Assembly: GCA_039024555.1 (NCBI GenBank)
Contig: JBCCQQ010000093.1
Coordinates: 1-17,574 of the forward strand
From: Cyanobacteria bacterium P01_D01_bin.156
GTDB taxonomy: Bacteria > Cyanobacteriota > Cyanobacteriia > Phormidesmidales > Phormidesmidaceae
DNA: 17,574 nt
Reading direction: 5' to 3'
Shown: piece by piece, positions 1 to 15,649 of the stretch
Numbering within the stretch: the stretch's first letter is position 1
Layout of the letters: each line of letters starts with the position of its first letter
Made by a program: the position numbers and the translations under genes
Notes under the pieces: generated by a model
The model's input: the letters and a program-made list of their open reading frames with translations, nothing else
What the model was told of the DNA's origin: nothing
The model's database searches: none

Positions 1-177
1 GATTGCACAAAAATAAAATTCCAAGCAGGATTTTATTAAGCAACGTCCTCCCCTTAACAAGGGGAGGTGCCGTAGGCGGAGGGGTCTTCGGCCATTTGCG
101 CTAGTTTTCCAGACCCCTCCCTGACGGTTCCCCTTGGCAAGCCTTATTAAGATGTCTTATTTTCACGCACTTCCCTA
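1..177. mobile_element. Possible MITE-like element with imperfect terminal inverted repeats, left end cut by the window edge
   Basis: GATTGCACAAAAATAA (1-16) resembles the reverse complement of TTATTTTCACGCACTT (157-172), about 11/16 matches. These ends enclose an inverted pair of cyanobacterial palindromic repeats (48-141). The right end abuts a TA at 176-177. No transposase present. Confidence 0.4.
48..141. repeat. Inverted pair of cyanobacterial GC-rich palindromic short dispersed repeats (CTCCCCTT-N-AAGGGGAG type)
   Basis: 48-86 CTCCCCTTAACAAGGGGAGGTGCCGTAGGCGGAGGGGTC. Its reverse complement matches 14112-14150 at 36/39 nt. A degenerate inverted partner lies at 112-141 (GACCCCTCC...TCCCCTTGGCAAG). 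Confidence 0.85.
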
Positions 178-306
178 AGTCCATCCGTTAATAGTTTGAC
201 AAAGCTGTTGCCGCACTCGAGTTCGGGTACCTAGCGCAGACTGTATTCTCAAGGCAACTTTTTCCTACATACACTCCAAGCTTCTACCAATCGGTAGAGG
301 CTTTTT
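177..306 (+). pseudogene. 3' tip (K-S-I-R-stop) and 3' UTR of an apparent paralog of the 3933..4394 gene
   Basis: AAGTCCATCCGTTAA (177-191) parallels AAGTCCGTAGTCCGCTAA (4377-4394). The downstream blocks CTGTTGC..CTCG, CTGYATT, GCAA..TTTTC and ACACTCCAAGC plus terminator recur in the same order at 4395-4528. Confidence 0.5.
278..306 (+). terminator. Rho-independent terminator
   Basis: 11-bp stem AAGCTTCTACC / GGTAGAGGCTT (one G-U pair), 4-nt loop, followed by a T run. Nearly identical to 4500-4528. Confidence 0.75.
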
Positions 307-526
307 CTATTGCATACTTGCTCATCGTGATTTACAGGTACCTGTTGCCTATTGTTGCAAAAATAATTTCAGAAATTTTGCGTCTAATAAATCCTTGTTG
401 CCACTCTTCTAGAGATTATTGCATAAATCGTAAAACCCTCTATTCATAAGGATTCTGGCATTGCTTCCTGTAGAAATAAGCGTCTATACTCACATCACAT
501 AAGACGCCAACAAGGAGCACACCTCC

Positions 527-949
527 ATGAAGCCACAACCCAAACGACGCCCTAGACGTCAACGATCCAAATTTTTTATTGCCAAACAACATCGATACCG
601 ACTTTTGGCTGGAACTGCATGTATTGTTTTCGGCGCTAGCCTTGGCCTTGGCCTACGGTTCCAATCTGCTTCTGCTAAAAAAGACCTTTGTCAGAACATT
701 GTCTCTAGTCAAACTGTTCTCTCACGACAACAACTGACTCAGCTACTCACTGTGCCCGAACGGGAAAATCGTCAGGCTATTGAAACCATTGTCGAAGCTC
801 CCTACTGCACCTTAAACGCTATTGAAGTGCGGGCTGGAGTGACCGCCGAACGGGCTGCCTATCCTCTAGCCTTTGACCCGAATACGTGGCTAGTGGTGCT
901 GTACGAAAATGAGGAGTATGTGGGCTATGGCTTTAAGCTTCAACACTAA
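527..949 (+). CDS. Conserved cyanobacterial hypothetical membrane-anchored protein; periplasmic domain possibly BamE/SmpA/BLIP-like
   Basis: 140-aa ORF with AAGGAG upstream. Very basic N-terminus, one hydrophobic helix (LLAGTACIVFGASLGLGL), then a two-Cys domain with pattern LSRQQL..L....RQAIETIV..P...Y......WLVVLYE...YVGY.F. Confidence 0.85.
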   Translation: MKPQPKRRPRRQRSKFFIAKQHRYRLLAGTACIVFGASLGLGLRFQSASAKKDLCQNIVSSQTVLSRQQLTQLLTVPERENRQAIETIVEAPYCTLNAIEVRAGVTAERAAYPLAFDPNTWLVVLYENEEYVGYGFKLQH

Positions 950-953
950 AAAC

Positions 954-1382
954 ATGTTCACGTTAACTGGTGTTGCACTACTAACTCTATTGGTTGCCTG
1001 CCAGTCAGCACCCGCACCGCGCAGCATCGCCGTTCAACAAACCTGGGAACTACAGGTGGGTAAACGAGTAGGCGACTATCTCATTAGCAGTGGCCTGGGC
1101 GATATCACCCTAGAGCTGGGGGGTGACTCGGTGCAGATGCCGTTTGATGGCAAAGTGCAACCGATGGATGAGTACTGTGTGGCGCTCACTAGCCCAGAGG
1201 TACCGGCTTATCTGTTTCGTCTCTGTGGTATCAAGCGCCCTAGTCTAGGGCAACACAGTCAGGGGCACACCATTGGCCGTACACAGCGCCTGGTGTTCGC
1301 TGCGTTTAGAAAAGAACCCAATGGCACCTGGGCATTGATCGAACCCGCTAATGACTTGATTTCACAGTTTTTTATGGAGTAA
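954..1382 (+). CDS. Lipoprotein with a degenerate (probably inactive) M23/LytM peptidase-like domain
   Basis: ATG at 954 (in frame with the 909 ORF call, 4 nt after the previous stop) gives MFTLTGVALLTLLVA-C, a lipobox. The segments YLISSGLG, DI...G..V..PFDGKV and G....G..IG match the M23 scaffold, but the HxxxD and HxH histidines are absent. Confidence 0.75.
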   Translation: MFTLTGVALLTLLVACQSAPAPRSIAVQQTWELQVGKRVGDYLISSGLGDITLELGGDSVQMPFDGKVQPMDEYCVALTSPEVPAYLFRLCGIKRPSLGQHSQGHTIGRTQRLVFAAFRKEPNGTWALIEPANDLISQFFME

Positions 1383-1388
1383 TTCATC

Positions 1389-2174
1389 ATGTGCGATCGC
1401 GGGCTCTTACCGCTAGCTCTTATCCTTTTGGGGGCCGCTCCGGCCCCAGCTCAGGACATTGCGCTTACCTTTAATACACCCGTTGAAAAACCTGACCAAT
1501 CTATGAGTAGAGGCATCAATGACCATTCTTCTTTAAAGAAAGCATCGAAGCCACCTACCTCAACTGGTAACGTTAGCCTTAGCTTTGCGCCCAAGCCTGT
1601 ACAGACTGCCAAAGCCCCCATTACCCAAATAGTTCTCCACACCTTAGAAGTCTTATTTCATGGGGGAAGTGATTCCCTAGTGGCTCGCGCTGTGGGTAGT
1701 GCCGAGGGGACTCGCACAGCGGATGGGGGGTATACATCTGCATATTATGGCCATGTAGACCCCGGCAACCGTAAGTGGAACCTGGGCAGTTTTTCCTATC
1801 AGCACGGGGCCAAGTCCCCTGCTGCAGCGGATGAAAAACAGCTCAAACGACTGTACAAACAGGCTTTAAATCTACGGCAACAGGCCAGCCAGCAGCAGCT
1901 TACCCTATCCCTAGCAGAGGAACTGAATGGCATTGATCTAGCCAATCAGGCACCGCTGGCGGCTTTGGATCGAGGCTATATTGACTGGCTAGCCATTGCC
2001 CGACAGCAGTCTATGGATGAAGTGGACCGCATTACCTGGGCTAGAACCCGTGCTTTTTTGGACCCCGATAGCGGCCGGTGGAACGCACCGGGTTTAGGCA
2101 ACACGCTGGAATCTATCCGCTGGGATCAGGCGAGACGGCAACAAGCTGTGCAACAGGCAATTGAGCTGGAGTGA
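1389..2174 (+). CDS. Exported protein with a putative lysozyme-like (muramidase/lytic transglycosylase) domain
   Basis: 261-aa ORF 6 nt after the previous stop. Signal peptide ends APA-Q, followed by a P/S/T/K-rich linker. Then AVGSAEGT (Glu at a helix end, as in lambda-type/GH104 lysozymes) and a YYGHVDPGN...NLGSFSYQ beta-hairpin segment. Confidence 0.7.
   Translation: MCDRGLLPLALILLGAAPAPAQDIALTFNTPVEKPDQSMSRGINDHSSLKKASKPPTSTGNVSLSFAPKPVQTAKAPITQIVLHTLEVLFHGGSDSLVARAVGSAEGTRTADGGYTSAYYGHVDPGNRKWNLGSFSYQHGAKSPAAADEKQLKRLYKQALNLRQQASQQQLTLSLAEELNGIDLANQAPLAALDRGYIDWLAIARQQSMDEVDRITWARTRAFLDPDSGRWNAPGLGNTLESIRWDQARRQQAVQQAIELE
1393..1400. repeat. HIP1 octamer GCGATCGC (also at 3981, 4564, 8013, 8178, 8733, 12789)
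   Basis: Seven exact copies seen in 17.6 kb. HIP1 over-representation is an established cyanobacterial hallmark. Confidence 0.9.
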
Positions 2175-2532
2175 GCCACAACAAAGATCACAAAATATCT
2201 ATTGGAACTGATGAAACGGCACCTGTATGACTGCTCAGAAGCGGATAAGGACAACTTAGAAAAGACATTGTAGTATCTATAGCCTTTGATCATTCCTCAG
2301 AGGCTTTTAATGCCCAAAATTTACCGTTGTGCTCCTCAGCGTGATGTCACTTCCTTCAGAGGAGATGCTGTGAAAAGTCTTACCGTCCGTTTTATTGTCT
2401 AAATCAACAAGATAAAAAGCCTTGTGATTGCTATCAACCTGTTTTCTTGAATAATCCCGAAAATCCTCTAACCAAGCTTTAGTTATCGATTAACGGACAA
2501 AGCTCAATGAGACATCCTTAAATTGACTTTAC

Positions 2533-2575
2533 AAAAATATACAAAGAGGGTGCAGATATCAATATCTGCACCCTC
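2533..2575 (-). terminator. Rho-independent terminator of rbp
   Basis: Perfect 14-bp inverted repeat GAGGGTGCAGATAT-CA-ATATCTGCACCCTC (2546-2575), followed on the minus strand by TTTGTATATTTTT. A second imperfect hairpin lies at about 2587-2633. Confidence 0.8.
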
Positions 2576-2642
2576 CTAGAATGAACTGACGTCAATAGCT
2601 GGTAACTACGGAAAAAGTTACCGCTGCAGCGTCAAGCAGTGA

Positions 2643-2918
2643 TTACCAACTCTTTTTGCGGCCACCACTGCGATTTTCACGGGGCTTAGCCTTATTGACC
2701 TTTAGCGCCCGTCCCATCCACTCTGCACCATCCAGTGCTTCAATGGCTGCTTCTTCTTCAGAGTCAGCACTCATTTCCACAAACGCAAAACCGCGCATGC
2801 GGCCAGTTTCACGATCGGTTGGTAAATGCACACTCTTGACCGTTCCATATTCCTTAAATACATCTTCTAAATCATCACTTGTAGCGTCGTAAGACAGATT
2901 GCCTACGTAAATTGACAT
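2643..2918 (-). CDS. rbp: RRM-domain RNA-binding protein (cyanobacterial Rbp family), 91 aa, short non-Gly-rich tail
   Basis: MSIYVGNLSY (RNP2) and RGFAFVEM (RNP1), plus AIEALDGAEWMGR.LKVNKAKPRE. The true start is ATG 2918 with GGAG upstream, not 3023. Confidence 0.97.
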   Translation of the reverse strand: MSIYVGNLSYDATSDDLEDVFKEYGTVKSVHLPTDRETGRMRGFAFVEMSADSEEEAAIEALDGAEWMGRALKVNKAKPRENRSGGRKKSW

Positions 2919-3051
2919 GGTTTTTCTCCAAAACTTAGGAAATACATAGAGGGAAGCTTCGAGAAGGGCAATGTCAATGGACAAAAGCAAAAACTCGTTA
3001 ATACTAGAAACAAAAGTTACCAACCGATTCTTTTTCTCTGAAGCAACTATA
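2919..3051 (-). promoter_or_regulatory. rbp promoter and conserved 5' UTR boxes
   Basis: On the minus strand: -10 TATAGT (3046-3051), box III-like TTCAGAGA (3035-3042), exact box II TTTGTTTNNAGT (3003-3014), box I-like TTCTCGAA (2958-2965), and RBS TTTGGAGA. These resemble the boxes described for cold-inducible Anabaena rbp genes (consensus recalled, not searched). Confidence 0.7.
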
Positions 3052-3421
3052 GCTCATGAATAGGCTTCTTAGACTGGTGTTAAGGACTGTATTAATTTTG
3101 CTTAGAGTTTAGTACTCCTAAACAAAGGAGCTCACCAATGGATATCTCATCAGAGTCGTTTGACGGATAAAGGCCAGCACCCAATCAGGTCACTGATATT
3201 TCTTCTTGCTTACGTTAGAGAGTCTTATCTTTAGAGAATATCTTCTTTGAACACAGCTCTTGGAAATCTCGTGTTTTGTAGAAGAAGCCCTGGGTTAGAT
3301 CGTTCTGGGTGCTGTTGTATTTTAAGGGGTATGAGTCTACCTGTTCAGCGCTACAAGGCACTGGACAACGGCATAAGTTCTATCAAAAGTTATTGATATA
3401 TACCTAATTGCTCTAGTCAAC

Positions 3422-3437
3422 AGTGATCAGGGACACA
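3422..3437. promoter_or_regulatory. Candidate CRP (SyCrp1-type) binding site
   Basis: AGTGA-TCAGGG-ACACA versus TGTGA-N6-TCACA (8/10). Confidence 0.4.
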
Positions 3438-3526
3438 AACTAAGAAAACTTGATGCTTGTGTAAGTAGATAATAGGCGTATCTTGCTAGGCGTAGGTAGG
3501 TGGCATCGTTGGCATATAGTGAATTC

Positions 3527-3655
3527 ACAGACAACTCAACTTATTGCATAACGTTCTATTTCAACCCTATATCTGAGCAGACAGGGCACTGTATTGCTCA
3601 ACCCTTTATATCTAAACGAAGCCTTCATGGACTCTAGTGTTCGTGGAGGTTTCTT
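3527..3655 (+). ncRNA. Candidate small RNA, about 130 nt
   Basis: -10 TATAGT at 3515-3520, an internal hairpin at 3574-3600 flanked by two copies of TCAACCCT(TT)ATATCT, and a terminator stem 3619-3652. It has no convincing ORF and is colinear with the 3' UTR at 4395-4528. Confidence 0.5.
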
Positions 3656-3780
3656 ATTGGTGCATTCTGCATTCCTTCTGCTCAGACTACTGAAACGGTT
3701 AAAACTGAGCTTTGTTATCGAGGATGCAGGTTTAAAGTGAGCGCGGGCTATGCCTGCCCAGCCCGTGACCTATTAATTCT

Positions 3781-3796
3781 GGTGATCGCTATCACG
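3781..3796. promoter_or_regulatory. Candidate CRP (SyCrp1-type) binding site upstream of the secreted repeat-protein gene
   Basis: GGTGA-TCGCTA-TCACG versus TGTGA-N6-TCACA (8/10, core GTGA/TCAC intact). Confidence 0.5.
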
Positions 3797-3932
3797 TGGT
3801 TTCCTCAGGTAATTTCAGAAACCCCTTAAGCAACGTTCAGTTGCCAGTCAGATAGCGTTCAGCTGCCCCCGGCATTCTTGTAATCAATGAAGCAAGTCCA
3901 ATACTTCACTGATTCACCAAGGAGCTTTAATT

Positions 3933-4394
3933 ATGAAACGCACTATTCTTTCTGCCTTAACTGTTCTTGTTGCGACAGCTGCGATCGCACCCGTTGCCTC
4001 TGCTATCGAGCCCGCTCGCTTCAATATTCAGTCCACTCGCCTCGAAGAACTGGACAGCCGCACTAAGAACTCCGTCCACAAGCTACGGGTTGGGCATCTA
4101 AATAACCAGTCCAAAGCTATTGAAGATATCCAAGCAGCTCGACTAGATGCTCTAGATATTCGCACCAAAGCTGTTGAAAATATCCAGGCTGAGCGTCTAA
4201 ATGGTTTGGATGCTCGTGATAAAAACAGTGTTCACAAGCTACGTCGTGAGCACCTAAACAACCAGACCAAAGCCGTCGAAGATATCCAAGCAGTTCGACT
4301 AGACGCTCTAGATATTCGCACTAAGGCGGTAGACAACATCCAGGCTGAACGTCTAAGTGGTTTGGATGCTCGTACGAAGTCCGTAGTCCGCTAA
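3933..4394 (+). CDS. Secreted/periplasmic internally repetitive protein of unknown function
   Basis: AAGGAG RBS and a classic Sec signal MKRTILSALTVLVATAAIAPVASA. The mature part is seven 16-18 aa units with consensus IQAxRLxxLDxRTK. Has its own terminator. Confidence 0.9.
   Translation: MKRTILSALTVLVATAAIAPVASAIEPARFNIQSTRLEELDSRTKNSVHKLRVGHLNNQSKAIEDIQAARLDALDIRTKAVENIQAERLNGLDARDKNSVHKLRREHLNNQTKAVEDIQAVRLDALDIRTKAVDNIQAERLSGLDARTKSVVR
4023..4379 (+). repeat. Intragenic 156-bp (52-aa) tandem repeat, about 2.3 copies, each made of 16/18/18-aa subunits
   Basis: NIQ codons start at 4023, 4179 and 4335 (period 156). NSVHKLR and DIQA.RLDALDIRTKAV blocks each occur twice, with mostly synonymous differences. 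Confidence 0.92.
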
Positions 4395-4499
4395 CAGATA
4401 CTGAACTGTTGCGGTGCTCGGTGTAGACTCCGTAATCTTTAAGAGTCTGCATTGCTTTAGAGCAATCACCCTTTTCACTCTTAGATCCTCACACACTCC

Positions 4500-4528
4500 A
4501 AGCCTCTACCCATACGGTAGAGGTTTTT
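4500..4528 (+). terminator. Rho-independent terminator of the repeat-protein gene
   Basis: AAGCCTCTACC-CATAC-GGTAGAGGTTT followed by TT. Confidence 0.8.
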
Positions 4529-4571
4529 CTGTTAACGGTATGTAGTGGTTATGTCTTAGGATTGCGATCGC

Positions 4572-4601
4572 AAAAAAAGACCTAACCGAGGCTAGGTCTT
4601 T
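4572..4601 (-). terminator. Rho-independent terminator of the ATP-grasp gene
   Basis: Stem AAAGACCTA (4576-4584) / TAGGTCTTT (4593-4601). A7 at 4572-4578 gives a U7 tail on the minus strand. Confidence 0.75.
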
Positions 4602-4619
4602 CACTTACTTTCTAAACGG

Positions 4620-4721
4620 TAGGGCCGTTTACCCTTTAGGGCCATTTACCCTTTAGGGCCGTTTACCCTTTAGGGCCGTTTACCCTTTAGGGCCGTTTAC
4701 CCTTTAGGGCCGTTTACCCTT
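4620..4721. repeat. 17-bp tandem repeat x6 (TAGGGCCGTTTACCCTT)
   Basis: Units start at 4620, 4637, 4654, 4671, 4688 and 4705, with one G>A change in unit 2 and no spacers. The last unit contains the stop codon of the ATP-grasp gene. Confidence 0.97.
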
Positions 4722-5868
4722 GGAGTGCCAGTTCTCTGCTAGCGTCTGCTGAAGCCGCTACTTCAAAGTCACCATTTAATCGAGCTTTTAACTCCTGATC
4801 TAACGCAAACTGTTCCACTGGGGAGCCCGCCAGCAGTACGCTGATTTCACCCACTTTTATCTTGCCCCAGTTAATCAAGATGACGCCTCGGCCCTTATAT
4901 GGATTAAACGCAATATCAGTTAGGTCAATATCTCGAAGCGACCGTAGGTGCGTTTTATAGGTAGCGCTACTCCAACAAGGAATCTCTAACCTCTGGGCAA
5001 CCAGCGTTGGATAAGATGAACCATTAAAACGTGGATTGCACTCAATTGCTAGATATTCCACACCGTTCGATGTAGGAACAACTGCCACATCAACCGCAAA
5101 GATTCCTTGCATCCCGTGCTCTGCTAACCAGTTAGCCAGAGGTTTAATCTCCTCCCAAGGGGTATGTTCAGAGGGATAACGATTACCCCGGTGAACGCAG
5201 CCTTCTAAAACCTGTTCTGACACTAGCAGCGGTTGTACACCCTCAGCGGTTACCCGATACTGCAGGTTCAAAAAAGCAGAGGCTTGTACTTCTGCCTGAA
5301 TTTGTAGGGATGCATTTGGGTCCAACTGGGCAAAGGCATTGTCTAAAGCCGATTGATCGACACAGCGGGCAATTCCTGCTCCATGGTCAGATACAGCGGG
5401 TTTAACATAGCAAGGAAAGGGAATATCCGATGCCGCTTTAGCCGCCGCCAGATTAGCAAACCGCCGTGTCTTGGGGACAGGAACTCCTAAGTCTTCAGCT
5501 AGTTGGATAAAGTTGTTCTTGGAGTTGATAAATTCAACAACCTCACACCACCGAGAATTTAGTTGAGTAAAAAACTGACGATGCTGTTGGTGAGAATTGA
5601 CCGCATCTCCAAAGAAGTAAAATGAGGGCTCATACTCACTATGGTGATTAATTTCGTTTAGAGAACATGACCAGATAACATTATGACAGTGAGAAAGACC
5701 AATCTGAGCATAGTGGTCCACAATGTAGGTCCATTCTGATACCAATTCAGGATTTATCTGGATCTTATCCTTAGGCCTTGTCAAAGCTAGCGCTCGACCG
5801 GAAAAGAGATGGTTGCCTGCTTCATGGTCATGGGTGCTGAGGGTAATATCGTGGTTGAAAATTCTCAT
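4714..5868 (-). CDS. ATP-grasp fold ligase of unknown substrate
   Basis: 384 aa with ATP-grasp motifs NSKNNF..LA..LGVPVP, FPCYVKP..SDHGAGI, IQAEV, GIFAVDV and IECNPRFNGS. The N-terminal region resembles a pre-ATP-grasp domain. Confidence 0.9.
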   Translation of the reverse strand: MRIFNHDITLSTHDHEAGNHLFSGRALALTRPKDKIQINPELVSEWTYIVDHYAQIGLSHCHNVIWSCSLNEINHHSEYEPSFYFFGDAVNSHQQHRQFFTQLNSRWCEVVEFINSKNNFIQLAEDLGVPVPKTRRFANLAAAKAASDIPFPCYVKPAVSDHGAGIARCVDQSALDNAFAQLDPNASLQIQAEVQASAFLNLQYRVTAEGVQPLLVSEQVLEGCVHRGNRYPSEHTPWEEIKPLANWLAEHGMQGIFAVDVAVVPTSNGVEYLAIECNPRFNGSSYPTLVAQRLEIPCWSSATYKTHLRSLRDIDLTDIAFNPYKGRGVILINWGKIKVGEISVLLAGSPVEQFALDQELKARLNGDFEVAASADASRELALQG

Positions 5869-6098
5869 GGTCCTAAAGTGTGGTGTAGAAGTGTTCGAAT
5901 TTTAAAAGCGACGGAACAGGCATTAATTAGCTTGATCGGTCAGATTGGATCCAATCAATCTGACAAATGTGTTGCGATTGATTGGATTTTCAACAAGCTG
6001 CTAGCAAAAGAGCTCCTAAGAGAGCGTGTAGAAGATTGGTATCGTTGCTGAACTCTAGAATTTAATAGAATTCGTGTACGGTGTGATAACTGCTGGCA

Positions 6099-6698
6099 CT
6101 AGGCACACTGCATAGCTTTGCGTTCAGTATTTTCTGCACTATGCTGTCTGGATTTAGCAGTACTGATTTTATGACTAGATAGCTGTTGCGAAGCTGAAAA
6201 ATCAGATACTAATTGTCGATTCTTCTCTGACAAAAGCTGAGACAACACTAACTGAACAGAGGGTTCACAGGACTGTAGAAGCTGTCTAAATGTTTGTAGT
6301 GCAACAGTTTTTAAATCGTTTTGGATCTTTAGAGTCAACACCTGGTTAAGCCCAATTGCCAAGGAGTAGGGAGCCATCTTAGTCAGGCTGTACTTTGCTA
6401 AAACCGGTATTGACTGTTCAACAAAGATGTCTTGCTTACACAAAATTTTGACTAGCGGCAGAACAATGGCGCTACCAAACTTAGGAAACAACTGGGACAG
6501 CTGCTTACGAGTATCTTGAGATTGGCTGGTGATAAACAGATAAACTGCCAAACCTAGAAAATCGTCAAAGTCATAGGAATCAAGGTGTTCACCCACACCT
6601 TCCTGATTTGCAAGGGTGTACACCACCAGCCAATCAGTATGCTGAAGTGTGTGTTGACTGTGGAGTGTAACAAAACCTGGACTAATCGAAGTAGACAT
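6099..6698 (-). CDS. Short HEAT-repeat-like protein resembling the N-terminal half of cyanobacterial NirB-type proteins
   Basis: 199 aa, predicted all-helical. The pattern DW...L.LA......DTRKQLSQLFPKFGSAIVLPLVKIL...LA..SL...LK.VA...F.QL recalls PBS-lyase HEAT/NirB proteins (recognised from memory). Confidence 0.6.
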   Translation of the reverse strand: MSTSISPGFVTLHSQHTLQHTDWLVVYTLANQEGVGEHLDSYDFDDFLGLAVYLFITSQSQDTRKQLSQLFPKFGSAIVLPLVKILCKQDIFVEQSIPVLAKYSLTKMAPYSLAIGLNQVLTLKIQNDLKTVALQTFRQLLQSCEPSVQLVLSQLLSEKNRQLVSDFSASQQLSSHKISTAKSRQHSAENTERKAMQCA

Positions 6699-6889
6699 AA
6701 GCAGAAAGCTAGCTACATGCTAGTTTGGGGTTTACCAGAAGTTAAGCAGTTAAGGGAAAGTGTGTGATACCAACAGCGTTTGCAACGCCAAAATGAACTA
6801 TCAACTCAAAACCTGAAGCGTTTGCCTGAGCAATCAGAAACGTAAAACTAGTTAAATGCGATGCCTCGCCATAAACCTGAGGCAATTAA

Positions 6890-6903
6890 GTATCAATCGA
6901 TAC
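6890..6903. promoter_or_regulatory. Candidate NtcA binding site
   Basis: GTA-TCAATCGA-TAC, an exact GTA-N8-TAC with extended symmetry GTATC..GATAC. Confidence 0.6.
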
Positions 6904-6937
6904 GCTTTTCTAATTATGTTGTACAACCTATCAAAGC

Positions 6938-6951
6938 GTATTGCAAGCTAC
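6938..6951. promoter_or_regulatory. Candidate NtcA binding site
   Basis: GTA-TTGCAAGC-TAC(A), reading TGTAGC..ATAC on the minus strand, 48 bp from the other site. Confidence 0.55.
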
Positions 6952-7299
6952 AGAATGAAAAAAATTGCCCTAGCCATCAGGGTCTCATGACATTCAAGAT
7001 GGGGATCGCCCGATATATGGGGTATTTCACAAAAAAGCCCCGCTCTAATTCGAGGTCACGTGAGTAATATTTATCGAACTGAGAGATCGTCAGCGCCTTT
7101 AGGAGCGGGTATGTATGGTGCAGGTTTATTGCGAATACCTACAGATATTAAGCCGGTTTGAACCAGTCGGTGTATTAACCATCGGTTTCTCATGCTGAAT
7201 ACGTTAATTTTCCGACTTGGCAGGTTACGAGCTGAGAAAAGTTACAGCCGTTATATGAGATAAACTCACTCCAAGGAGTCACAATGGTGATTTTTACAG

Positions 7300-8097
7300 T
7301 TACTCGATAACAACTGCGTTGGCGTGACAATCTTTCAGCCATCGCTGAACCGCTTGCCCAATACTCCCCTGACTGCTATCGCGCGGCGGTAATAGCACAC
7401 TCTCTTGGTCACCAATGGCGGAAAACATAAATGCCATTTGCCACCCTGCATCACTGGGTACCAGAAACAGCCAGTGAAAATGTTGAATTGAGGTGGCATC
7501 TAGACCAGAATATTGTCGTTCTAGGGTGGTAAAGAATAGCTGATAGGTCTGCTGACTAATATCCGCCTGAGTCGTGTACACACGATCCCTGATTTCTAAA
7601 GGCATCTGATCAGGTTGGCTGGCTGTAATGACATAGGCGGGCCGATAGGCGGTGGCAATGTCTCCTACACTGCTTTGGAGAATACGGTTGGTATAGCTAG
7701 GAATGTCTCGTACCAACAGATTGGAAAGGGTGTCAAAGTCCTGTGGACAGGCTGTTTGCTCTCGAATAAAGCCGGTCTCAGATATTTCGATCGCTTCGAC
7801 TGTTTCAGGCTCTTTTGTTTCAGGTGCTTGGTCAGTCGTGGGGAGAGTCGGAGGGGTAGGAGGGTTAGGAGACTCTGCAGGTGGAGAAGCCGGAGGGAGA
7901 TCTAGAAGCTGGGCTAGGCTAGGGGAATTCCCGAAAAGAATGCTCCCAATGAGCATGCCGCTTAGTAATGCAGGGAAACTTATCAGAGAGCCGGGTTGTC
8001 TGCCATTGTGAGGCGATCGCAAGGAACGGCTCCTACCAACTTGTTTACTGACTAGGTTTAGTGAATAGCGCACAGCTCCAACATTATCCAATTTCAT
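7300..8097 (-). CDS. Conserved cyanobacterial hypothetical exported protein; start uncertain
   Basis: Open frame directly behind pyrF, with ATG 8097 overlapping the pyrF end. Hydrophobic signal-like stretch ending SLA-Q, a Pro-rich linker, then a domain CP....L...L.RD.PSY.NR...FFTTLERQY...FHWLFL...GW...MFS...PPRDSS.G.IGQAV..WL.DC. Confidence 0.8.
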
Positions 8098-8800
8098 CAC
8101 AGATTCGTTGAAATGCTGCCGCCGGGTCTGCCGCTTGGGTAATGGGTCGACCAATGACCAGATAGCTGGCTCCCGCTGCGATCGCATCTGCCGGTGTCAT
8201 CGCCCGCTGCTGATCCCCCTTAGCCGCCCAGGTGGGACGCACCCCTGGACACACCAGTAAAAAGTCATCGCCACAAATACGCTGCAGGGTGTCTGCTTCC
8301 TGAGGGGAGCAGACAATCCCACTAAGGCCGCTATCCTGGGCCAGCAATGCCATTTGGGTGGCATAGTCCGTCAGCTCTAAGGAGACCTTGAGCTCAAACG
8401 CAAGATCCCGTGTATTGATGCTGGTGAGTAGGGTGACGGCAATCAGGTTAGGGGGCGGGCAGTTGGCTTGGGCAGCCCCCTCTAGGGCAGCCGCCTGGGC
8501 TGCTTTAAGGGCGGTGCCCCCGGCTGGGGCGTGGACGGTGACGAGATCCACACCATAGCGACCGGCGGCGCGGCAGGCTCCGGCCATGGTATTGGGAATG
8601 TCGTGAAATTTTAGGTCCAAAAAGATGCGCTTTTGTCGCTGTTTTAGCTGCTCTAGTATGGCGGGGCCGCAGCTAACAAATAGCTCCAGACCCACTTTCC
8701 AAAAGGTAACCTCAGGAATAGCATCGAGCAGTGCGATCGCATCCTCAAACGTGGGCACATCCAACGGCACAATAATCTTTTCAGCTGCGGTTTGTCCCAT
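8084..8800 (-). CDS. pyrF: Orotidine-5'-phosphate decarboxylase
   Basis: [27 protein letters not shown] signature, [20 protein letters not shown]. Start overlaps the tyrS stop (TAATG). Confidence 0.98.
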
Positions 8801-10041
8801 TACGCCACCAGCCTTACAAACTTTTTCTTACCCACCTGGAGCACCTTGCCCGTGAGTTCATCAGGGCTAGCAAACTCAATATTGGGGTCGGTAATTTTTT
8901 CCCCATCCAGCTTGACCGCCCCACCTTTAATCTGGCGACGGGCATCGCTGCTGCTGCTACATAGCGGTGTGGCCCCCAGCAGATAGAACGCCTTTGCCGG
9001 AAAGTTAACGGCAGCTAGGTCAAATTCTGGCACCGCCTCAGCTTGGCCTGTCCCCCTCTGCACCAGATTAATGGCATCCTTTTGGGCCTGCTGGGCGGCA
9101 GCGTCTCCGTGGTATTGGCCAGTCACATCCAGGGCCAGCTGCTTCTGCGCTTCCCGAGGATTGTCGGGTAGGCTGCTCAAATCCTGCTTTGTAAGCAGTT
9201 CAAAGTAGTTCTTAATCAGATCGTCCGGCACCTTCTCCAGTTTGGAATACATGGATAGGGGATCTTCTTGAAGGCCCACATAGTTGCCCAGGGATTTGGA
9301 CATTTTTTGGGTGCCATCGGTGCCCAGCAGCAGCGGTAACAACATGCCAAACTGGGGCGTTAGCCCAAAGTGGCGCTGCAGGTCACGCCCCACCGCCACA
9401 TTAAATTTCTGGTCCGTGCCCCCCAGTTCCACATCCGACTGGAGCGCCACTGAGTCGTAGCCCTGGAGCAGCGGGTAGAGAAACTCATGTAAATAGACCG
9501 GGTTACCTTGGTCGTAGCGTTTGGCAAACCCTTCTTTGGCGAGCATTTGGCCCACGGTCATGGTGCCCAGCAGCTCAATGATTTTGCCCAGGTCCAAATC
9601 CGATAGCCATTCCGAGTTGTAGCGAATCTCTAAACGACCGGGGGTGTCAAAATCCAAAATGGGTCGTACCTGCTCAATGTAGGTTTCGGCATTGGCCTTA
9701 ACCTCCGCTTCCGTCAGCTGTTTGCGCACCTCTGACTTACCCGTTGGGTCACCAATGCGGGCGGTAAAGTCCCCAATTAGTAGGATTGCCGTGTGGCCCG
9801 CATCCTGAAATGCCCGCAGCTTTCTGACCGGAATACTGTGGCCCAAGTGAATTTCCGACCCGGTTGGGTCGATGCCTAGCTTAATGCGCAGGGGGCGATC
9901 GCTTTTCTGGAGTCGGGCCAACAAGTTTTCATTGGGGTCCTCAGATTCAGGCTGGTGGGGAAATACATCACTAACGCCGCGATAGATCCCATCAAATTCG
10001 CTGGGAATAGAGGGCATGACAAAATTGGAAGCCTCGGTCAT
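8800..10041 (-). CDS. tyrS: Tyrosine--tRNA ligase
   Basis: [13 protein letters not shown] (HIGH), [37 protein letters not shown], and a C-terminal S4-like domain ([18 protein letters not shown]...QVGKKKF). Confidence 0.98.
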
Positions 10042-10062
10042 GGTGAGTTGCTATGGGTAGAC

Positions 10063-10194
10063 ATGGGCATTGCTGATCCTCGAAATAATTGTCAATGGGT
10101 TGGGCTATCCCTTAAATCAGCAATGGCGAATGGGCATTGCTGATCCTCGACATGATTTAAGTGGATTGGTTTATTCCCCTAAATCAGCAATGAC
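10063..10194. repeat. Two tandem 65-bp elements with 10-bp terminal inverted repeats (CATTGCTGAT...ATCAGCAATG)
   Basis: Copies at 10063-10127 and 10130-10194. The first 21 nt are identical, TAAATCAGCAATG is shared, and the centres are diverged. Confidence 0.9.
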
Positions 10195-10705
10195 TAAAAA
10201 TGCGCCGTGAACCATCAATAAATCTCCGCACAATTGACTAAGTTTCTAAAATGGCCTAGACATTTGGACGGAATCCACTATAGTGGCGGATAACAAATTT
10301 CAAATTTCCCATTAAAACGAATGGGAAACCGTCAGCGAGTGCTTATCATAGGACACTCAGGAAAGGCTCGAGCAACCTATTCACCTAAGCTGCTTAAGAT
10401 CATAGGAATGCCAGTCACCCTGCCCATTTGCCGCTGCTGATTCGGAAATGAACCGATGTGCATGTACATATCGGACCCTATTGGTAACTTCATCCCGAGC
10501 ACCAGCAGCGCCCAAATCATTCTACTGGTCAGATGAATCTGCCGAAACCATAAACGTCTGCTGTTTTACTCTGTTCTAGTCAAAGCTATTTTTTCCTTTT
10601 AGGAAATCAATTGTTTTAACTTGAATGTTATTTGGCTACTTTTAATGGCTGTGAGCCTTATAATTTATGGCCCGCCGTGTATTTACGTAAGGATGTAGCG
10701 TATCT

Positions 10706-12628
10706 GTGGCATTTAATACTATTCGTCAATCTAGAGTTCCTTTAGCCCTGCAGGGTGAGCCCAAGCTACTCCAGCATATTCAAGATGTATTGCAGATCAG
10801 TGGAGCCACGCTGCTGACGGCGACCATGCTATGTAGTGCGGTGGCGGCAGGTGGCCTGGTGGGACTGGCCATTAGCTTCAGAAATTTGCCAGATGTGCGA
10901 GCTCTGCGTAACTACATTCCTACAGAAACCAGCTACATCTACGATATGGAGGGCAACCTCCTAGACAGTTTGCACGATGAGGCCAATCGAGAGGTTGTTG
11001 ACCTCAATCAGATTTCTCCCCACTTAAAGCGGGCCGTTCTAGCGGTGGAAGATAGCGACTTTTATACCCACACTGGCATTAATCCGGTGGGTATTGGTCG
11101 AGCGTTTTTGGCTAACTTTCAAGCGGGTAATACGGTTCAGGGTGGTTCCACCATCACCATGCAGCTGATTAAGAACCTGTTTTTAACCCCCCAACAGGCC
11201 ATCAGCCGGAAGGTGGCGGAGGTTGTTTTATCCCTGCGTCTGGAGCAGATTTTCGAGAAAGATGAAGTTCTCGAAATGTATCTTAATCAGGTTTACTGGG
11301 GCCACAATACCTACGGTGCAGAGACTGCGGCCCAAAGCTACTTTAATAAGTCATCTAAGGATTTAACCCTGGCGGAAGCGGCCATGATGGCTGGACTGAT
11401 TAAGGCTCCAGAAGGTTTGAGTCCCTTTGTGGACTATAAAGCGGCCAAACGGGAACAGTCCCTGGTGCTAAATCGGATGGCTAAGCTGCGGTGGATTTCG
11501 CAGGCGGAAGCAGAGGCGGCTAAAAAACAACCCCTACGACTAGGGGAAGTTACTTCGTTTATCTCTAGCAAGGCCCCCTATGTCACCGAAGCGGTGGTAC
11601 AAGAACTCCAGGAACAGTTTGGCCAAGAAGCGGTGGTCAAAGGGGGAATGCGGGTACAAACCACCATCGATATTAAGCTCCAGAGTCTGGCCAAGCAAAC
11701 GGTCAAGTGGGCCCATGCCAATCGCTTTGCCAATGGGGCCATTGCTGACCAAATTGCCCTAGTGGCGGTTGATCCACGCACCCACTATGTAAAGGCCATT
11801 GTCGGTGGCGTAGACCATAAAAGCAGCCAGTTTAATCGAGCGGTGCAGTCCCGTCGTCAGCCGGGGTCTTCCTTTAAGCCCTTTGTGTACTACGCTGCAT
11901 TTGCCTCGGGGCGCTACACCCCTGAAAGCATTATTGGGGATTCCCCCGTCAGCTACCCCGATGGGTCTGGCTACTATTCTCCTAAAAACTATGGCGGTTC
12001 CTTTATGGGCAGTATGCCGATTCGGCGGGCTTTGGAGCTGTCTCGCAATATCCCTGCGGTGAAGCTGGGCCAAGCAGTTGGCATTTCTCGGGTGATTGAT
12101 GTGGCCCGCACGCTGGGTATTGAAAGCCCTATGGACCCAGTGATTTCGTTGCCCCTAGGTTCAGTGGATCTAACTCCCATGGAAATGGCCGGGGCCTATG
12201 CCACCTTTGCCAATAATGGCTGGCACTCTGATCCAACGCTGATTGCCCAGGTAACGGACAGCGATGGTAACGTGCTACTGGACAATACGCCCAAACCCCA
12301 GCTGGTTCTGGATCCTTGGGCGACGGCGGCCCTTAACGATGTATTGCGGGGAGTGCTTGAGCGAGGCACAGCCACCAATGCCCGCATTGGCCGACCGGCG
12401 GCGGGTAAAACCGGGACTACCGACTCCCAGCGGGATGTTTGGTTTGTGGGCTATGTGCCCCAGCTGTCGGTGGCGGTGTGGGTAGGCAACGACGACTACA
12501 GTCCCATGGGTCGCGGGGCGACGGGGGGTAGCTATGCGGCACCCATCTGGCGTGACTATATGGTGCAAGCGTTACGGGATCAGCCGGTACAAAATTTCCG
12601 GCGTCCGTCTGAGTTTATTCGCCCTTAG
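10706..12628 (+). CDS. mrcA: Class A penicillin-binding protein (PBP1A family transglycosylase/transpeptidase)
   Basis: GTG start and one N-terminal TM. GT51 motifs EDSDFYTHTG, QGGSTITMQL, RKVAE, KDEVLEMYLN. Transpeptidase motifs SSFK, SRN, KTGT. Confidence 0.95.
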   Translation: MAFNTIRQSRVPLALQGEPKLLQHIQDVLQISGATLLTATMLCSAVAAGGLVGLAISFRNLPDVRALRNYIPTETSYIYDMEGNLLDSLHDEANREVVDLNQISPHLKRAVLAVEDSDFYTHTGINPVGIGRAFLANFQAGNTVQGGSTITMQLIKNLFLTPQQAISRKVAEVVLSLRLEQIFEKDEVLEMYLNQVYWGHNTYGAETAAQSYFNKSSKDLTLAEAAMMAGLIKAPEGLSPFVDYKAAKREQSLVLNRMAKLRWISQAEAEAAKKQPLRLGEVTSFISSKAPYVTEAVVQELQEQFGQEAVVKGGMRVQTTIDIKLQSLAKQTVKWAHANRFANGAIADQIALVAVDPRTHYVKAIVGGVDHKSSQFNRAVQSRRQPGSSFKPFVYYAAFASGRYTPESIIGDSPVSYPDGSGYYSPKNYGGSFMGSMPIRRALELSRNIPAVKLGQAVGISRVIDVARTLGIESPMDPVISLPLGSVDLTPMEMAGAYATFANNGWHSDPTLIAQVTDSDGNVLLDNTPKPQLVLDPWATAALNDVLRGVLERGTATNARIGRPAAGKTGTTDSQRDVWFVGYVPQLSVAVWVGNDDYSPMGRGATGGSYAAPIWRDYMVQALRDQPVQNFRRPSEFIRP

Positions 12629-12661
12629 ACCGTTTCAAATTATGTAAGCAGAGGGTGGCCT

Positions 12662-13969
12662 ATGTTTGATGACAATAGCTCTGCTGATGATTCACTCCAT
12701 GGGTTGCTGAACCAGTATGCTCAGACGATGGCCGCTCTGGGCCGTTCAAGCAGTGCCCCAGAGACTGTTTTAGATGCGTTGTTGGTGCGCGATCGCATCC
12801 AGAACCTATTAAAAGACGGCACCCTAAACGGCGAGGATTTAGTCCGTCTAGATCAGCTCGATGCCCAGCTTAAAACCCACGAAGATACCATTAGCCAAAC
12901 CCCGGACCTAGGCCGCTGGCGAGGCACCTATCAGCCAGAGACTGATGCCTGGTGGTGGCACCCAACCGCCAAAAATGCCAAACAGCGAAACCGTTATGAC
13001 TGGCTGTGGAATGGTTTATCGGTGGCATTCCTTACCGTATCAGCCAGCTTAATTTTAAATACGGCCTCCCGGTTTTGGAGTGGCGGCATTGCCTCAGCAG
13101 GTACGCTGGCAGTAGCCGCCCAAAGTGTAATGACGCTGATTGTGGGTAAGGGAGCACTAACGGACTCGGGGCGAAAAGCCTGGGAGCAGATTTTAAAGCG
13201 GCGAGGGGTGCCTGAGTACCACTGGCAGGAATGGAGCTGTGGGGCAGCAGGTGTTGTTTTGCTAGGCGTAGCAGCTATCCACGGGTCGATGCCTCGGTTT
13301 GCCACCTGGTATAACGGCTGGGGCGTTAAGGATTACGAGGCGGATCGTTTAGCTAGTGCGCTGCAAAACTATCAGGTGGCGATTAACCTTAGCCCTGACT
13401 ATGCCGAAGCGTACTACCACCTGGGGGTGCTATACGAGGATTTGCAACAGCAGGCAGATGCCATTGAAGCGTATCAGTTTGTGGTGGAGCGGGGACCTGA
13501 TGTGGTTGACCTACAAACCTGGTTAGAGGCCAATAACAACCTAGGCCGACTGTACATTTTGCAAGAAGATTATCGGGCGGCGGTCACCCTGTTGCTGCAG
13601 GGCTCTGAAGAGGTTTCTGAACAGGTCGTAGAAGAGGGTACTGCAACAGACCTAGCCAAGGTGGAGTACAGTTTGCTTAAAAATTTAGGCTGGGCTCGGT
13701 TGGAACAAAAACGCTATGCCGAAGCAGAAGCCTCTTTAGATGAGGCAATTCTGGTATTGGAAGACAGTCTCTCTGGTGATGAATCTGTCATTAATCCGGG
13801 GTCTGCCTATTGTTTAATGGCGCAGGTATTAGATGCCCAGGAGCTAGTCGGTGAAGCCGATGGCTTTTGGGAAACGTGTCTGATCGAAGCCGATGCAGGG
13901 AATCCAGATGAGGATACTTGGCTGGGGGTATACGAGCAGAGATTGCAGGCGGAAGAGGCTGGCGAATGA
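12662..13969 (+). CDS. Membrane protein with C-terminal TPR repeats
   Basis: 435 aa. Helical N-terminal domain ending in WR....P...AWWW, 2-3 hydrophobic segments, then TPRs (ALQNYQVAINLSPDYAEAYYHLGVLYE; ANNNLGRLYI; LLKNLGWARLEQKRY). Confidence 0.9.
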   Translation: MFDDNSSADDSLHGLLNQYAQTMAALGRSSSAPETVLDALLVRDRIQNLLKDGTLNGEDLVRLDQLDAQLKTHEDTISQTPDLGRWRGTYQPETDAWWWHPTAKNAKQRNRYDWLWNGLSVAFLTVSASLILNTASRFWSGGIASAGTLAVAAQSVMTLIVGKGALTDSGRKAWEQILKRRGVPEYHWQEWSCGAAGVVLLGVAAIHGSMPRFATWYNGWGVKDYEADRLASALQNYQVAINLSPDYAEAYYHLGVLYEDLQQQADAIEAYQFVVERGPDVVDLQTWLEANNNLGRLYILQEDYRAAVTLLLQGSEEVSEQVVEEGTATDLAKVEYSLLKNLGWARLEQKRYAEAEASLDEAILVLEDSLSGDESVINPGSAYCLMAQVLDAQELVGEADGFWETCLIEADAGNPDEDTWLGVYEQRLQAEEAGE

Positions 13970-15348
13970 GCGTTGGAATATGGAAAGGGGAAGTGTCCGG
14001 TCTCTCCCTTACGAAGGGGGAGTTAGAGGGGGTTAGACGACCGGAAATGCCAGTTTTCAGAACTTGTGTATCCTTCAGGGAGGGGGTTCAACAGGAGGCG
14101 CAAGTATCGAGGACCCCTCCGCCTGTGGCACCTCCCCTTGGTAAGGGGAGTACATTAGCGGTTGGTGATGGGGCGAAGGGTATTCAGGTCCCCCTAGCCC
14201 CACAATACTGGGGGAGACAAGACTCAAAGCCCCCAGTATTGGGGGGTTGGGGGCCGCCAATACGCTTGTCATATTACAAAACTCTCGGTCTTCTGCTTGT
14301 ACTACAGACCTTTTTCCCTTTAGCCGCTTTGGCGTCTGCTCGCATTGTTACTATTCAGCGTGGCACTGTTCAGGTGCAGCGTCGCGGTAGTTCTGGCTAC
14401 GAGACGGGGCGTGTGGGCACTCGGCTAAATCCGGGGGATGCGATTTTGCCGAGTCGGCGGGCGCGGGTGTTGGTGCAGTGTCCTGGTAGTGCCAGGGGAC
14501 GGCGGGTAAGGGCGGGGCGGTTGTCGGGGCTGCGGGTGATTTGTCCAAATTTGTTGCGTTCTACCGATCCGCGTGGGGATAGTAGTTTGCCGCAGCTGCT
14601 GGAGGGGCGGTTTCCATTTAAGCCGCAGGTGTTGGGGACGGTTCCTAGGTTTTACTGGCCTGGATTGGCAGGTACACCGGAGTATCAGGTGCAGCTGCTA
14701 CAGCAGACCTATGTGCAGCCAGAGTCGGCGGATGAGTTTAGTTTTGCTGCGCCTGAGCTAGTGGAGACGGTGGTATGGGAGGCCACTGTGAATAACAATA
14801 GTCTGTTGTATTCCGGGCCGGAGTTTGAACCGGAGGGGCGGTATCGACTGCGGGTGATGGTGGGTGATGAGCTGCACTATGGGGTTGTTTTTGAGGGTTT
14901 GGCACTGGACCAGCGAGATGAGGTGAGTGCCGCTATTGCTGCTGTGGTGGGTGGGGAACAACTTGTTGAGCAGGCGTTGCCAGTGGCGTATTTGCAGCTG
15001 GAGCAGGAACTGTTTTGGGAGATGGTGAGTACGCTGCGACCAGCGGTGGAAGCGGGTGGTGCTTCGGCGGAAATGCATCGGTTGTTGGCGGAGAGCTATT
15101 TGCAGCTGGGGCTGTATGGGCTGGCGGAAACGCACTTTGGTACGGCGGTGGCGCTGGCGGATGAGGGGGATGATTTGCGGACTCGGGCTGAGGGTTGGGT
15201 TGGGTTGGCAAAAGTAGCGGCGGCACAGCAGGATGAGGCGTTGGTGCGGCAGCGGTTGGAGATGGCGCAGGTTTTGTATGGGGTGTTGGAAGAGGATGAG
15301 GGTTGGGGGCGGACGATTGAGGAGTGGTTGGTGGGATTGGCAGAGTAG
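13966..15348 (+). CDS. Exported protein with a beta-rich (FecR-like/Ig-like) N-terminal region and C-terminal TPR; N-terminus built from in-frame palindromic repeats
   Basis: ATG 13966 overlaps the upstream TGA (ATGA). A signal-like segment (YKTLGLLLVLQTFFPLAALA) only appears at about aa 100, followed by GTVQVQR....Y.....G..L..GD.I, P.FYW......YQV and a TPR (LLAESYLQLGLY..A...F..A). A later start (e.g. TTG about 14266) is possible. Confidence 0.8.
   Translation: MSVGIWKGEVSGLSLTKGELEGVRRPEMPVFRTCVSFREGVQQEAQVSRTPPPVAPPLGKGSTLAVGDGAKGIQVPLAPQYWGRQDSKPPVLGGWGPPIRLSYYKTLGLLLVLQTFFPLAALASARIVTIQRGTVQVQRRGSSGYETGRVGTRLNPGDAILPSRRARVLVQCPGSARGRRVRAGRLSGLRVICPNLLRSTDPRGDSSLPQLLEGRFPFKPQVLGTVPRFYWPGLAGTPEYQVQLLQQTYVQPESADEFSFAAPELVETVVWEATVNNNSLLYSGPEFEPEGRYRLRVMVGDELHYGVVFEGLALDQRDEVSAAIAAVVGGEQLVEQALPVAYLQLEQELFWEMVSTLRPAVEAGGASAEMHRLLAESYLQLGLYGLAETHFGTAVALADEGDDLRTRAEGWVGLAKVAAAQQDEALVRQRLEMAQVLYGVLEEDEGWGRTIEEWLVGLAE
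14002..14255. repeat. Cluster of three different cyanobacterial palindromic repeats
   Basis: 14002-14033 CTCTCCCTTACGAAGGGGGAGTTAGAGGGGGT; 14112-14150 (36/39 to the reverse complement of 48-86); and the imperfect inverted pair 14187-14214 / 14230-14255 (CAATACTGGGGG / CCCCCAGTATTG). Confidence 0.88.
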
Positions 15349-15382
15349 GGCAAGTGTTGATCGGTTTGTAGCGTTAGTGGTG

Positions 15383-15518
15383 ACCCACCCCGCCTGACCG
15401 GCACCCCTCCCGAGAGAGGATGGATTGAGGAATTATTCTCACTAGACAGATGCTTACTTGCAAAACTCAGACAACCAGCTGAGCACTTTCCCCTCCGGGG
15501 AGGGGCTCCGGGGTGGGT
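15383..15518. repeat. Inverted pair of ACCCACCCC...CCCCTCCC-type palindromic repeats in an intergenic region
   Basis: 15383-15420 ACCCACCCCGCCTGACCGGCACCCCTCCCGAGAGAGGA and 15488-15518 TTCCCCTCCGGGGAGGGGCTCCGGGGTGGGT. Confidence 0.8.
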
Positions 15519-15649
15519 TTCTGGACTATTGGCTGCCAACACATATAGCCATAGCTTGGAAAAATCCGAAATTTTGATTGTGATGCTGTAAGAAGTTTGT
15601 AGGCCAATGTATAAAAATACTTGGTAGGTCATCGCCCCTTCGCTTTCCT

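Follow-up and report, generated by a model that had tools for sequence, protein, structure and literature searches.

A conserved and apparently undescribed cyanobacterial gene module with a degenerate LytM lipoprotein and a predicted lysozyme-superfamily protein

Degenerate LytM proteins and the A-B-C locus

The closest described counterparts of the system considered here are proteins in which an M23 (LytM) domain has lost its activity. In Caulobacter crescentus, the inactive LytM domain of DipM binds and stimulates lytic transglycosylases, with SdpA/SdpB and AmiC as partners (10.1101/2022.09.10.507391). In PrgK of pCF10, a degenerate LytM domain down-regulates a lysozyme-fold muramidase and is tied to a trans-envelope machine, as stated in 10.1101/2024.02.15.580431, and in EnvC, NlpD, and Helicobacter pylori Csd2 (PMC9662197) the degenerate M23 fold serves protein-protein control, a role that we also propose for protein B below. 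We describe here three genes, called A, B, and C, in a stretch of 17,574 nucleotides that was analyzed as a whole and is termed the window (contig JBCCQQ010000093.1, positions 1 to 17,574, of the assembly GCA_039024555.1 of Cyanobacteria bacterium P01_D01_bin.156). The evidence on balance favours a cell-wall remodelling module in which an A-B scaffold tethers and controls a peptidoglycan glycan hydrolase, C. The module is real and conserved and is apparently undescribed.

The three genes are all on the forward strand. Gene A (527–949) encodes a 140-residue protein with a transmembrane (TM) anchor and a periplasmic BamE/BLIP/OsmE-like domain, gene B (954–1382) a 142-residue lipoprotein with a degenerate M23/LytM fold, and gene C (1389–2174) a 261-residue protein with a Sec-type signal peptide, a low-complexity linker, and a predicted lysozyme-superfamily core. 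These coordinates agree with a preliminary description, made by a model from the sequence, which had noted three same-strand genes separated by 4 nt (A/B) and 6 nt (B/C). The value of 4 nt presumes that B starts at the ATG at 954; an alternative in-frame ATG at 909 would overlap A, and the start at 954 places the lipobox cysteine at residue 16. The distinct export signal noted for each protein was also found to recur among homologs when scored by our own pattern and hydropathy rules, not by SignalP: 92 of 109 A homologs have a basic stretch and then a TM helix at the N-terminus, 107 of 115 B homologs have a lipobox-like cysteine, and 96 of 120 C homologs have a hydrophobic stretch with A-x-A, followed by an LxF motif.

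No match to A, B, or C was found in Pfam and NCBIfam, nor in a PDB sequence search with the three profiles, and a PHROG scan returned one row only, for A, with a non-significant E-value of 0.39. Pfam scans of every alignment member, 79 for B and 83 for A, gave nothing meaningful. We counted 134 homologs of A, 122 of B, and 1,062 of C; those with names are all cyanobacterial and all labelled 'hypothetical protein', as had been anticipated. The ratio of nonsynonymous to synonymous substitution rates (dN/dS) of all three core domains was 0.04–0.24 where dS was computable (window versus 17 loci). These ratios show that A, B, and C are real proteins under purifying selection. Promoter and terminator scans of the region stayed at chance level. 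A search of the full-text literature, with subscription journals and supplements outside its reach, found no description of the module, although mention in a proteome table is possible.

Predicted folds and the A-B partnership

The predicted signal peptide of C covers approximately residues 1–21 and precedes the low-complexity linker. The core domain is encoded by positions 1641–2171 of the forward strand (residues 85–261). A model of this core, made from a 56-row alignment, had a predicted local distance difference test (pLDDT) value of 96 and a predicted template modelling (pTM) score of 0.92. In this model, E106 (codon 1704–1706) ends the second helix, before a beta-hairpin with D124, N127, N131, and G133, and a second cluster (D183/N186/Q187) lies farther along. 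E106, D124, N131, and G133 are kept in 90 of 93 C homologs, the remaining three being gaps in fragments. When the model was compared by VIA with 48,161 PDB representatives, the top 50 were nearly all lysozyme-superfamily members or T4-lysozyme fusions. P22 lysozyme was the best match (Z 8.7, root-mean-square deviation (rmsd) 4.2, 136 residues aligned), followed by a phage endolysin (Z 8.5), a chitosanase (8.3), and MltE (8.1), and the Foldseek ranking, headed by endolysins, agreed with this order. The modelled domain has a lysozyme-superfamily fold with an invariant helix-end Glu, and the earlier proposal of a lysozyme-like enzyme with such a residue is borne out by the fold model, the PDB matches, and the conservation of E106. 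C very probably cuts glycan strands as a hydrolase.

Some results argue against this assignment: Foldseek gave no PDB match for C at E ≤ 0.001, the fold Z values are singly middling (7–9), yet consistent in kind, and an hhalign comparison of C with 25 near-identical cyanobacterial GH24 lysozymes gave no match (P 0.2%). C is thus not a GH24 enzyme by sequence. GH24 enzymes usually have a Glu-Asp-Thr triad with short spacing; in C, E106, D124, and N131 are invariant, the Glu-Asp spacing is longer, and Asn stands in place of Thr. As for GH46, a Pfam match was absent and the structural score was tied with that of lysozymes (Z 8.3). The lysozyme-like fold, the helix-end Glu, and the following beta-hairpin are common to C, GH24, GH46, and SLT (GH23), but C differs from all three families by the lack of an HMM or profile match, by structural identities of 8–15%, and by its own invariant motifs D-P-G-N and D-x-x-N-Q, and for these reasons it looks like an undescribed lysozyme-fold family.

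The equal standing of GH46 chitosanases and lysozymes (7c6d, Z 8.3, 152 aligned; 4olt, Z 7.7, 15% identity) would, like the missing sequence-level GH24 match, also fit a chitosanase-like enzyme acting on a non-peptidoglycan amino-sugar polymer, which would remodel sheath or exopolysaccharide and be positioned by A-B. We regard this as quite improbable in view of the fusions of C domains to M23 and SLH domains, the phage lysis-type neighbourhoods, the SLT-like replacement of C in one genome (all described below), and the LytM fold of the partner protein.

The folds of A and B were modelled jointly from the natural A-B fusion of another genome (G029) with a 23-row alignment (pLDDT 85, pTM 0.84, linker disordered). 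B consists of a lipobox, with Cys16 at codon 999–1001, and one domain, and no LysM or coiled-coil targeting domain was found (no Pfam match in 79 members). By hhalign, B matched nine active M23 domains with P 58% and E 1e-4. The B half of the fusion matched pseudoalterin, LytM, DipM, EnvC, and SpoIIQ with VIA Z values of 7.0–7.8, and M23/LytM structures with a Foldseek probability of up to 1.0. In the alignment to active M23 domains, the HxxxD loop of B is deleted and HxH is replaced; HxH was present in 0/53, 0/79, and 1/23 B homologs versus 9/9 active M23 controls. These results support an M23/LytM fold without the zinc/catalytic motifs H(x)nD and HxH, that is, a degenerate LytM domain outside the cytoplasm, as in LytM factors. 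The name 'dead M23 lipoprotein', given to B in the preliminary description, is thereby upheld, and neither of the two folds that it had named proved unrelated, B matching M23 and C matching lysozymes.

A has a basic N-terminus, a single TM helix at about residues 26–43, and a periplasmic domain at about 55–140, with a conserved cysteine pair (C55, C94); its membrane attachment is a TM anchor, not a lipobox. In the VIA comparison, the A half of the fusion matched BamE (Z 7.0, rmsd 3.3, 74 aligned), BLIP-type proteins (Z 6.2–6.5), OsmE (6.3), and BtiO, a T6SS (type VI secretion system) immunity protein (6.0), and the Atlas lead for the window's own A was of the same BamE/BLIP kind (TM-score 0.54–0.62). 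According to these models, A carries the two-helix plus beta-sheet fold of BamE and BLIP. The earlier view of A as an inner-membrane anchor therefore holds for the TM helix, but a mere anchor leaves out this periplasmic domain. While the fold is common to the BamE/OsmE/BLIP superfamily, which includes immunity proteins (BtiO), A differs from it in that no sequence match to BamE (PF04355) or BLIP was found among 83 A members, and also in its type II TM anchor, conserved Cys pair, extended conserved hairpin, slow evolution, and coupling to a dead M23 protein.

Several lines of evidence link A to B. In a phylum survey of an even sample of 301 genomes, both genes were present in the identical 13 genomes; of 80 B loci, 61 have A upstream of B; and 21 full A-B fusions were found among 150 clusters listed, those inspected having a TM anchor and not a lipobox. 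Since the pTM of 0.84 spans two domains joined by a floppy linker, the fusion model, made from one shallow alignment, suggests that the A and B domains pack together. The natural fusions support the partnership foreseen in the preliminary description, and we hold it very likely that A binds B. Aligning half-length A and B rows jointly with the fusions misaligned A, and that alignment was set aside.

The coupling of A to B is tighter than that of either to C: the identity correlation was 0.84 for A-B versus 0.71 with C, and fusions join A to B, no A-C or B-C fusion being found among the loci examined. Together with the presence of SpoIIQ among the B fold matches, this could mean that A-B is a structural envelope scaffold in its own right (SpoIIQ-SpoIIIAH-like or a BamE-type accessory) and that C is a frequent, co-regulated, non-binding neighbour. 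We find this rather improbable, as a linker motif is concentrated in C proteins in an A/B context and survives a catalytic swap, and as A, B, and C are present or absent together in nearly all of 41 relatives (see below).

Genomic contexts, the core operon, and the linker motif of C

C was found in 22 of the 301 genomes, among them 12 of the 13 A/B genomes, where it is adjacent in nine and elsewhere in three. In the thirteenth (G095), a secreted SLT-like protein stands at the place of C. A fusion profile search of the 301 genomes added a single weak A/B match. Among the 41 relatives, 32 have A, B, and C, eight have none, and one genome, 65% complete, has A only. For B, 296 GTDB loci were obtained, of which the best 80, some cut by contig ends, comprised 37 A-B-C loci (11 with a fourth gene, D, described below), 23 A-B loci, one D-A-B locus, and 19 with B alone. 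The neighbourhood survey thus showed synteny across other genomes, on which the earlier interpretation depended. The list of named carriers, which is biased to close matches, holds mostly Leptolyngbya-, Nodosilinea-, Leptothoe-, and Adonisia-like organisms, and cultured carriers include Leptolyngbya sp. PCC 7375 and PCC 6406. Two further observations concern individual loci: in Nodosilinea-type B-alone loci (L084, L093, L097, L109, L110, L112, and similar), B lies between glycosyltransferase-like and large membrane protein genes, and an A-B-C locus with C split over two frames (L173; G323:C1:2366672-2367201) probably holds a pseudogene.

The hetR gene was found in all 13 A/B genomes and in 74 of the 301 overall, counts that reflect a clade pattern, as kin are not independent. 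Neither of the two largest hetR-positive families yielded A/B (0/35 and 0/14), and hetR was not found in two genomes carrying A-B-C. This distribution argues against a general septal-junction function, and the roles in septal nanopores or filament fragmentation suggested in the preliminary description were consequently downgraded.

That description had also presented a three-gene operon. A-B-C is indeed conserved, but the core operon has the fourth gene, D; its product combines a coiled coil with a TM hairpin at the C-terminus and belongs to no family in Pfam or NCBIfam. The genome of the window carries a second operon of the form D-A-B-C (G000:C58:36195-39700), with a fur-like gene and dnaN-dnaA next to it. 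D-A-B-C also adjoins the fur-like regulator in the examined loci of the same family (L174–L178), and in this genus dnaN-dnaA is a further neighbour. The other copies in the genome of the window are one A that stands alone, a C paralog that is truncated, and a fusion of an active M23 domain with C. In a C tree, which was computed in quick mode, gave long-branch warnings, and was rooted at the midpoint, so that no phage-to-host direction is claimed from it, 27 rows including the window's C formed a D-less clade (SH-aLRT 99) in which the flanking genes vary. The D-less copies, including that of the window, are multi-copy. Because its C falls in this D-less clade with variable flanks, the window copy is a derived, lineage-expanded version of the core D-A-B-C operon.

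Some variant copies were also seen. D-A without B-C occurs at L179. The lone A (G000:C6:149787-150254) is a divergent paralog between photolyase-like and low-molecular-weight phosphatase-like genes and, by inspection of the annotation, near murB/murC-like genes; a weak-scoring extra copy of A like this one is present in most same-genus genomes.

An alternative is an effector-immunity system, in which C would be an antibacterial lysozyme released at competitors, A (with B) would confer immunity, and A-B without C would be orphan immunity. Consistent with this, the D-less copies are multi-copy with variable flanks, 23 of the 80 B loci have A-B only, A matches BtiO, and C matches 4nso, a structure titled as an effector-immunity complex, which we take to be VgrG3-TsiV3 (Z 5.5); a weak VgrG3-like Atlas lead was also obtained. 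Membrane-anchored BamE-like immunity proteins are described (PMC12419801). However, rapid divergence and hypervariable cassettes, as expected of polymorphic toxin-immunity systems, were not what we observed: the low dN/dS values indicate strong purifying selection, and of the three proteins C is the best conserved (mean identity 0.62 versus 0.56 and 0.53 for the other two), its core keeping about 60% identity from family to family. Moreover, the core D-A-B-C operon lies beside the fur-like gene in the loci examined, C has an ordinary signal peptide and occurs without detectable A/B in 10 genomes, and its linker motif is retained through a swap of the catalytic domain. An effector-immunity function is therefore unlikely.

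This linker motif, [VI]-x-L-x-F, occurs twice in the window's C on the forward strand, at 1458–1478 (residues 24–30, just past the predicted cleavage site) and at 1572–1592 (residues 62–68). Repeated [VI]-A-L-[STNED]-F motifs were present in the linkers of 52 of 55 A/B-adjacent C proteins (98 motifs, 1.39 per 100 aa, against a mean of 11 and a maximum of 24 in shuffled linkers), and in other cellular C (6/22, 0.18 per 100 aa) and viral C (5/9, 0.17 per 100 aa) they were rarer, but these counts come from related rows on which the pattern had been tuned and are not a statistical test. Among loci obtained after the pattern had been fixed, the motif was found in five of six intact A/B-adjacent C proteins versus one of eight others, and that lone match is incidental, inside a signal peptide. 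The SLT-like replacement of C in G095 bears two linker motifs, and this retention through a change of catalytic domain is a stronger point than the counts. From the sequences, the motif is probably, if not firmly, a docking signal for C on A-B. When the window's own genome was searched for further secreted proteins with the motif, no convincing additional client emerged.

C domains also occur in other contexts, including fusions to M23 peptidases and to SLH domains. In 11 viral contigs with C, the domain is fused to M23 in four, lies at the C-terminus of large proteins in four, and is secreted and motif-bearing in three. The large phage proteins are 950–1010 aa long and, because of their size and position, may be ejection proteins; lysozyme activity has been described for some gp15-like proteins (PMC8954989). 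The secreted viral copies (L131–L133) have a signal peptide and two linker motifs and lie upstream of terminase and portal-type genes, the terminase gene adjoining, and neither A nor B was found in their retrieved flanks. Viral contigs offered 34 candidate stretches for a relative of B, none of which was confirmed. Two phage records also hold C, one in a 990-aa Autographiviridae protein and the other in a gene cluster of a Microcoleus phage, where amidase, endopeptidase, and M23 genes accompany it. The fusion and phage contexts of C all point to peptidoglycan.

Given these viral occurrences, three of them with signal peptide and motif, and given that BLIP is an enzyme-inhibitor fold, A-B might inhibit or decoy cyanophage C-type lysins, the cellular C being a captured copy held in check. 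Such an anti-phage role is very improbable: the four C versions in large phage proteins show the motif at background rate only, most A-B genomes have an intact and conserved cellular C, and the chromosomal place of D-A-B-C is stable.

Fusions of an active M23 domain with C were observed in the genome of the window (G000:C43:10827-11960; L150) and at L172, L170, L134, and L136, with two overlapping frames in L170. These fusions lie in mobile-looking clusters with parA/parB-like, membrane-protein, and ATPase-like genes and may serve a cyanobacterial DNA-transfer element as its wall hydrolase.

Proposed mechanism, neighbouring features, and significance

In the cell-wall remodelling module that we favour, C would be exported to the periplasm and cut the glycan strands of peptidoglycan by means of its lysozyme-type Glu, E106, acting as a muramidase or a lytic transglycosylase. 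A, anchored in the cytoplasmic membrane by its TM helix and bearing the BamE/BLIP fold, and B, the dead-LytM lipoprotein, would form a non-catalytic heterodimer. This scaffold would capture C by the repeated [VI]-x-L-x-F motifs of its floppy linker, so that cutting would be confined to the site of the scaffold, and docking would probably also switch the activity of C. In the core copies, the scaffold is probably positioned from inside by D, with its cytoplasmic coiled coil and C-terminal TM hairpin. The favoured process is a local opening of the wall, either for growth and division or for a trans-envelope machine.

Several observations weigh against this module. A/B was not detected in 10 of the 22 C-bearing genomes, and 43 of the 80 B loci are without an adjacent C (five of them cut short downstream). 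In G095, the SLT-like match does not reach the Pfam cut-off (E 0.008), the strict motif is missing at one A-B-fusion locus (L167), and the relatedness of the motif-bearing rows detracts from their counts. Furthermore, the folds of A and B come from the fusion of another genome and not from the proteins of the window.

A wider proposal, possible but tentative, is that A-B acts as a plug-in platform, in which the BamE-fold protein would clamp the dead LytM lipoprotein and the pair would recruit interchangeable hydrolases (C or SLT) by the motif, in cis or in trans. The C family would then be shared with cyanophage particle and lysis proteins, and phages with the motif-bearing form could use the platform of the host.

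By analogy, the module would work like a pair of LytM factor and autolysin, although by its architecture it is not EnvC, NlpD, or DipM. NlpD is a lipoprotein. B is unlike EnvC and NlpD in having no coiled coil or LysM domain, and those proteins target amidases with FtsEX as partner, whereas the putative target of B is a glycan hydrolase and its partner a BamE/BLIP-fold protein. The likeness to DipM lies in an inactive LytM domain that controls glycan-cleaving autolysins, and B matched the DipM structure 7qrl with Z 7.6 (rmsd 3.8, 100 aligned). However, DipM is soluble, has LysM domains, and acts at the division site, while B is a minimal lipoprotein whose partner, separate or fused, is a membrane protein of BamE fold, and an unrelated, putative new hydrolase with a candidate docking motif is encoded alongside. 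The LytM domain of PrgK is likewise among the B matches (Z 6.6); PrgK is one polypeptide of Gram-positive conjugation, whereas separate genes are found here, with no type IV secretion system in the window. Since DipM stimulates and PrgK dampens its target, the scaffold could either activate or restrain C.

Some other features of the window and of the genomes were recorded. Strong hairpins lie upstream of A (278–303, 11 pairs) and between C and a convergent RNA-binding (RRM) gene (2544–2577, 15 pairs). Positions 1–190 hold a dispersed repeat of about 140–200 nt, found again in part or in full on more than 25 other contigs (78–100% identity), often at contig ends, which is a MITE- or REP-like element (miniature inverted-repeat transposable or repetitive extragenic palindromic element). 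The gene at 3933–4394 encodes a secreted 153-aa short-repeat protein without significant family match; it has many paralogs in the same genome (several on contig C5, and also on C3, C90, and C118), the one on C118 having a C paralog upstream of it and an integrase-like gene nearby. Farther along are an ATP-grasp protein gene (4714–5868), two unannotated open reading frames (6099–6698 and 7300–8187), a gene that is PBP1A-like by inspection (10706–12628), and a TPR protein cluster (12662–17574), the last member of which looks CHAT-like by inspection. No link was seen between the module and the ATP-grasp, unannotated, PBP1A-like, or TPR genes of the window. In one surveyed genome (G321), GH24 lysozymes were matched ten times, and eight of these matches lie on different contigs with nearly the same score, which suggests a repeated prophage or mobile element.

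The control of autolysins by dead LytM proteins has so far been described mostly in proteobacteria and firmicutes. If our interpretation is true, such control would also exist in cyanobacteria, where three or four unannotated families would make it up, with BamE/BLIP as a new partner fold and with a short docking motif. The C family would further provide a candidate function for more than 1,000 hypothetical proteins, as well as candidate cyanophage lysins.

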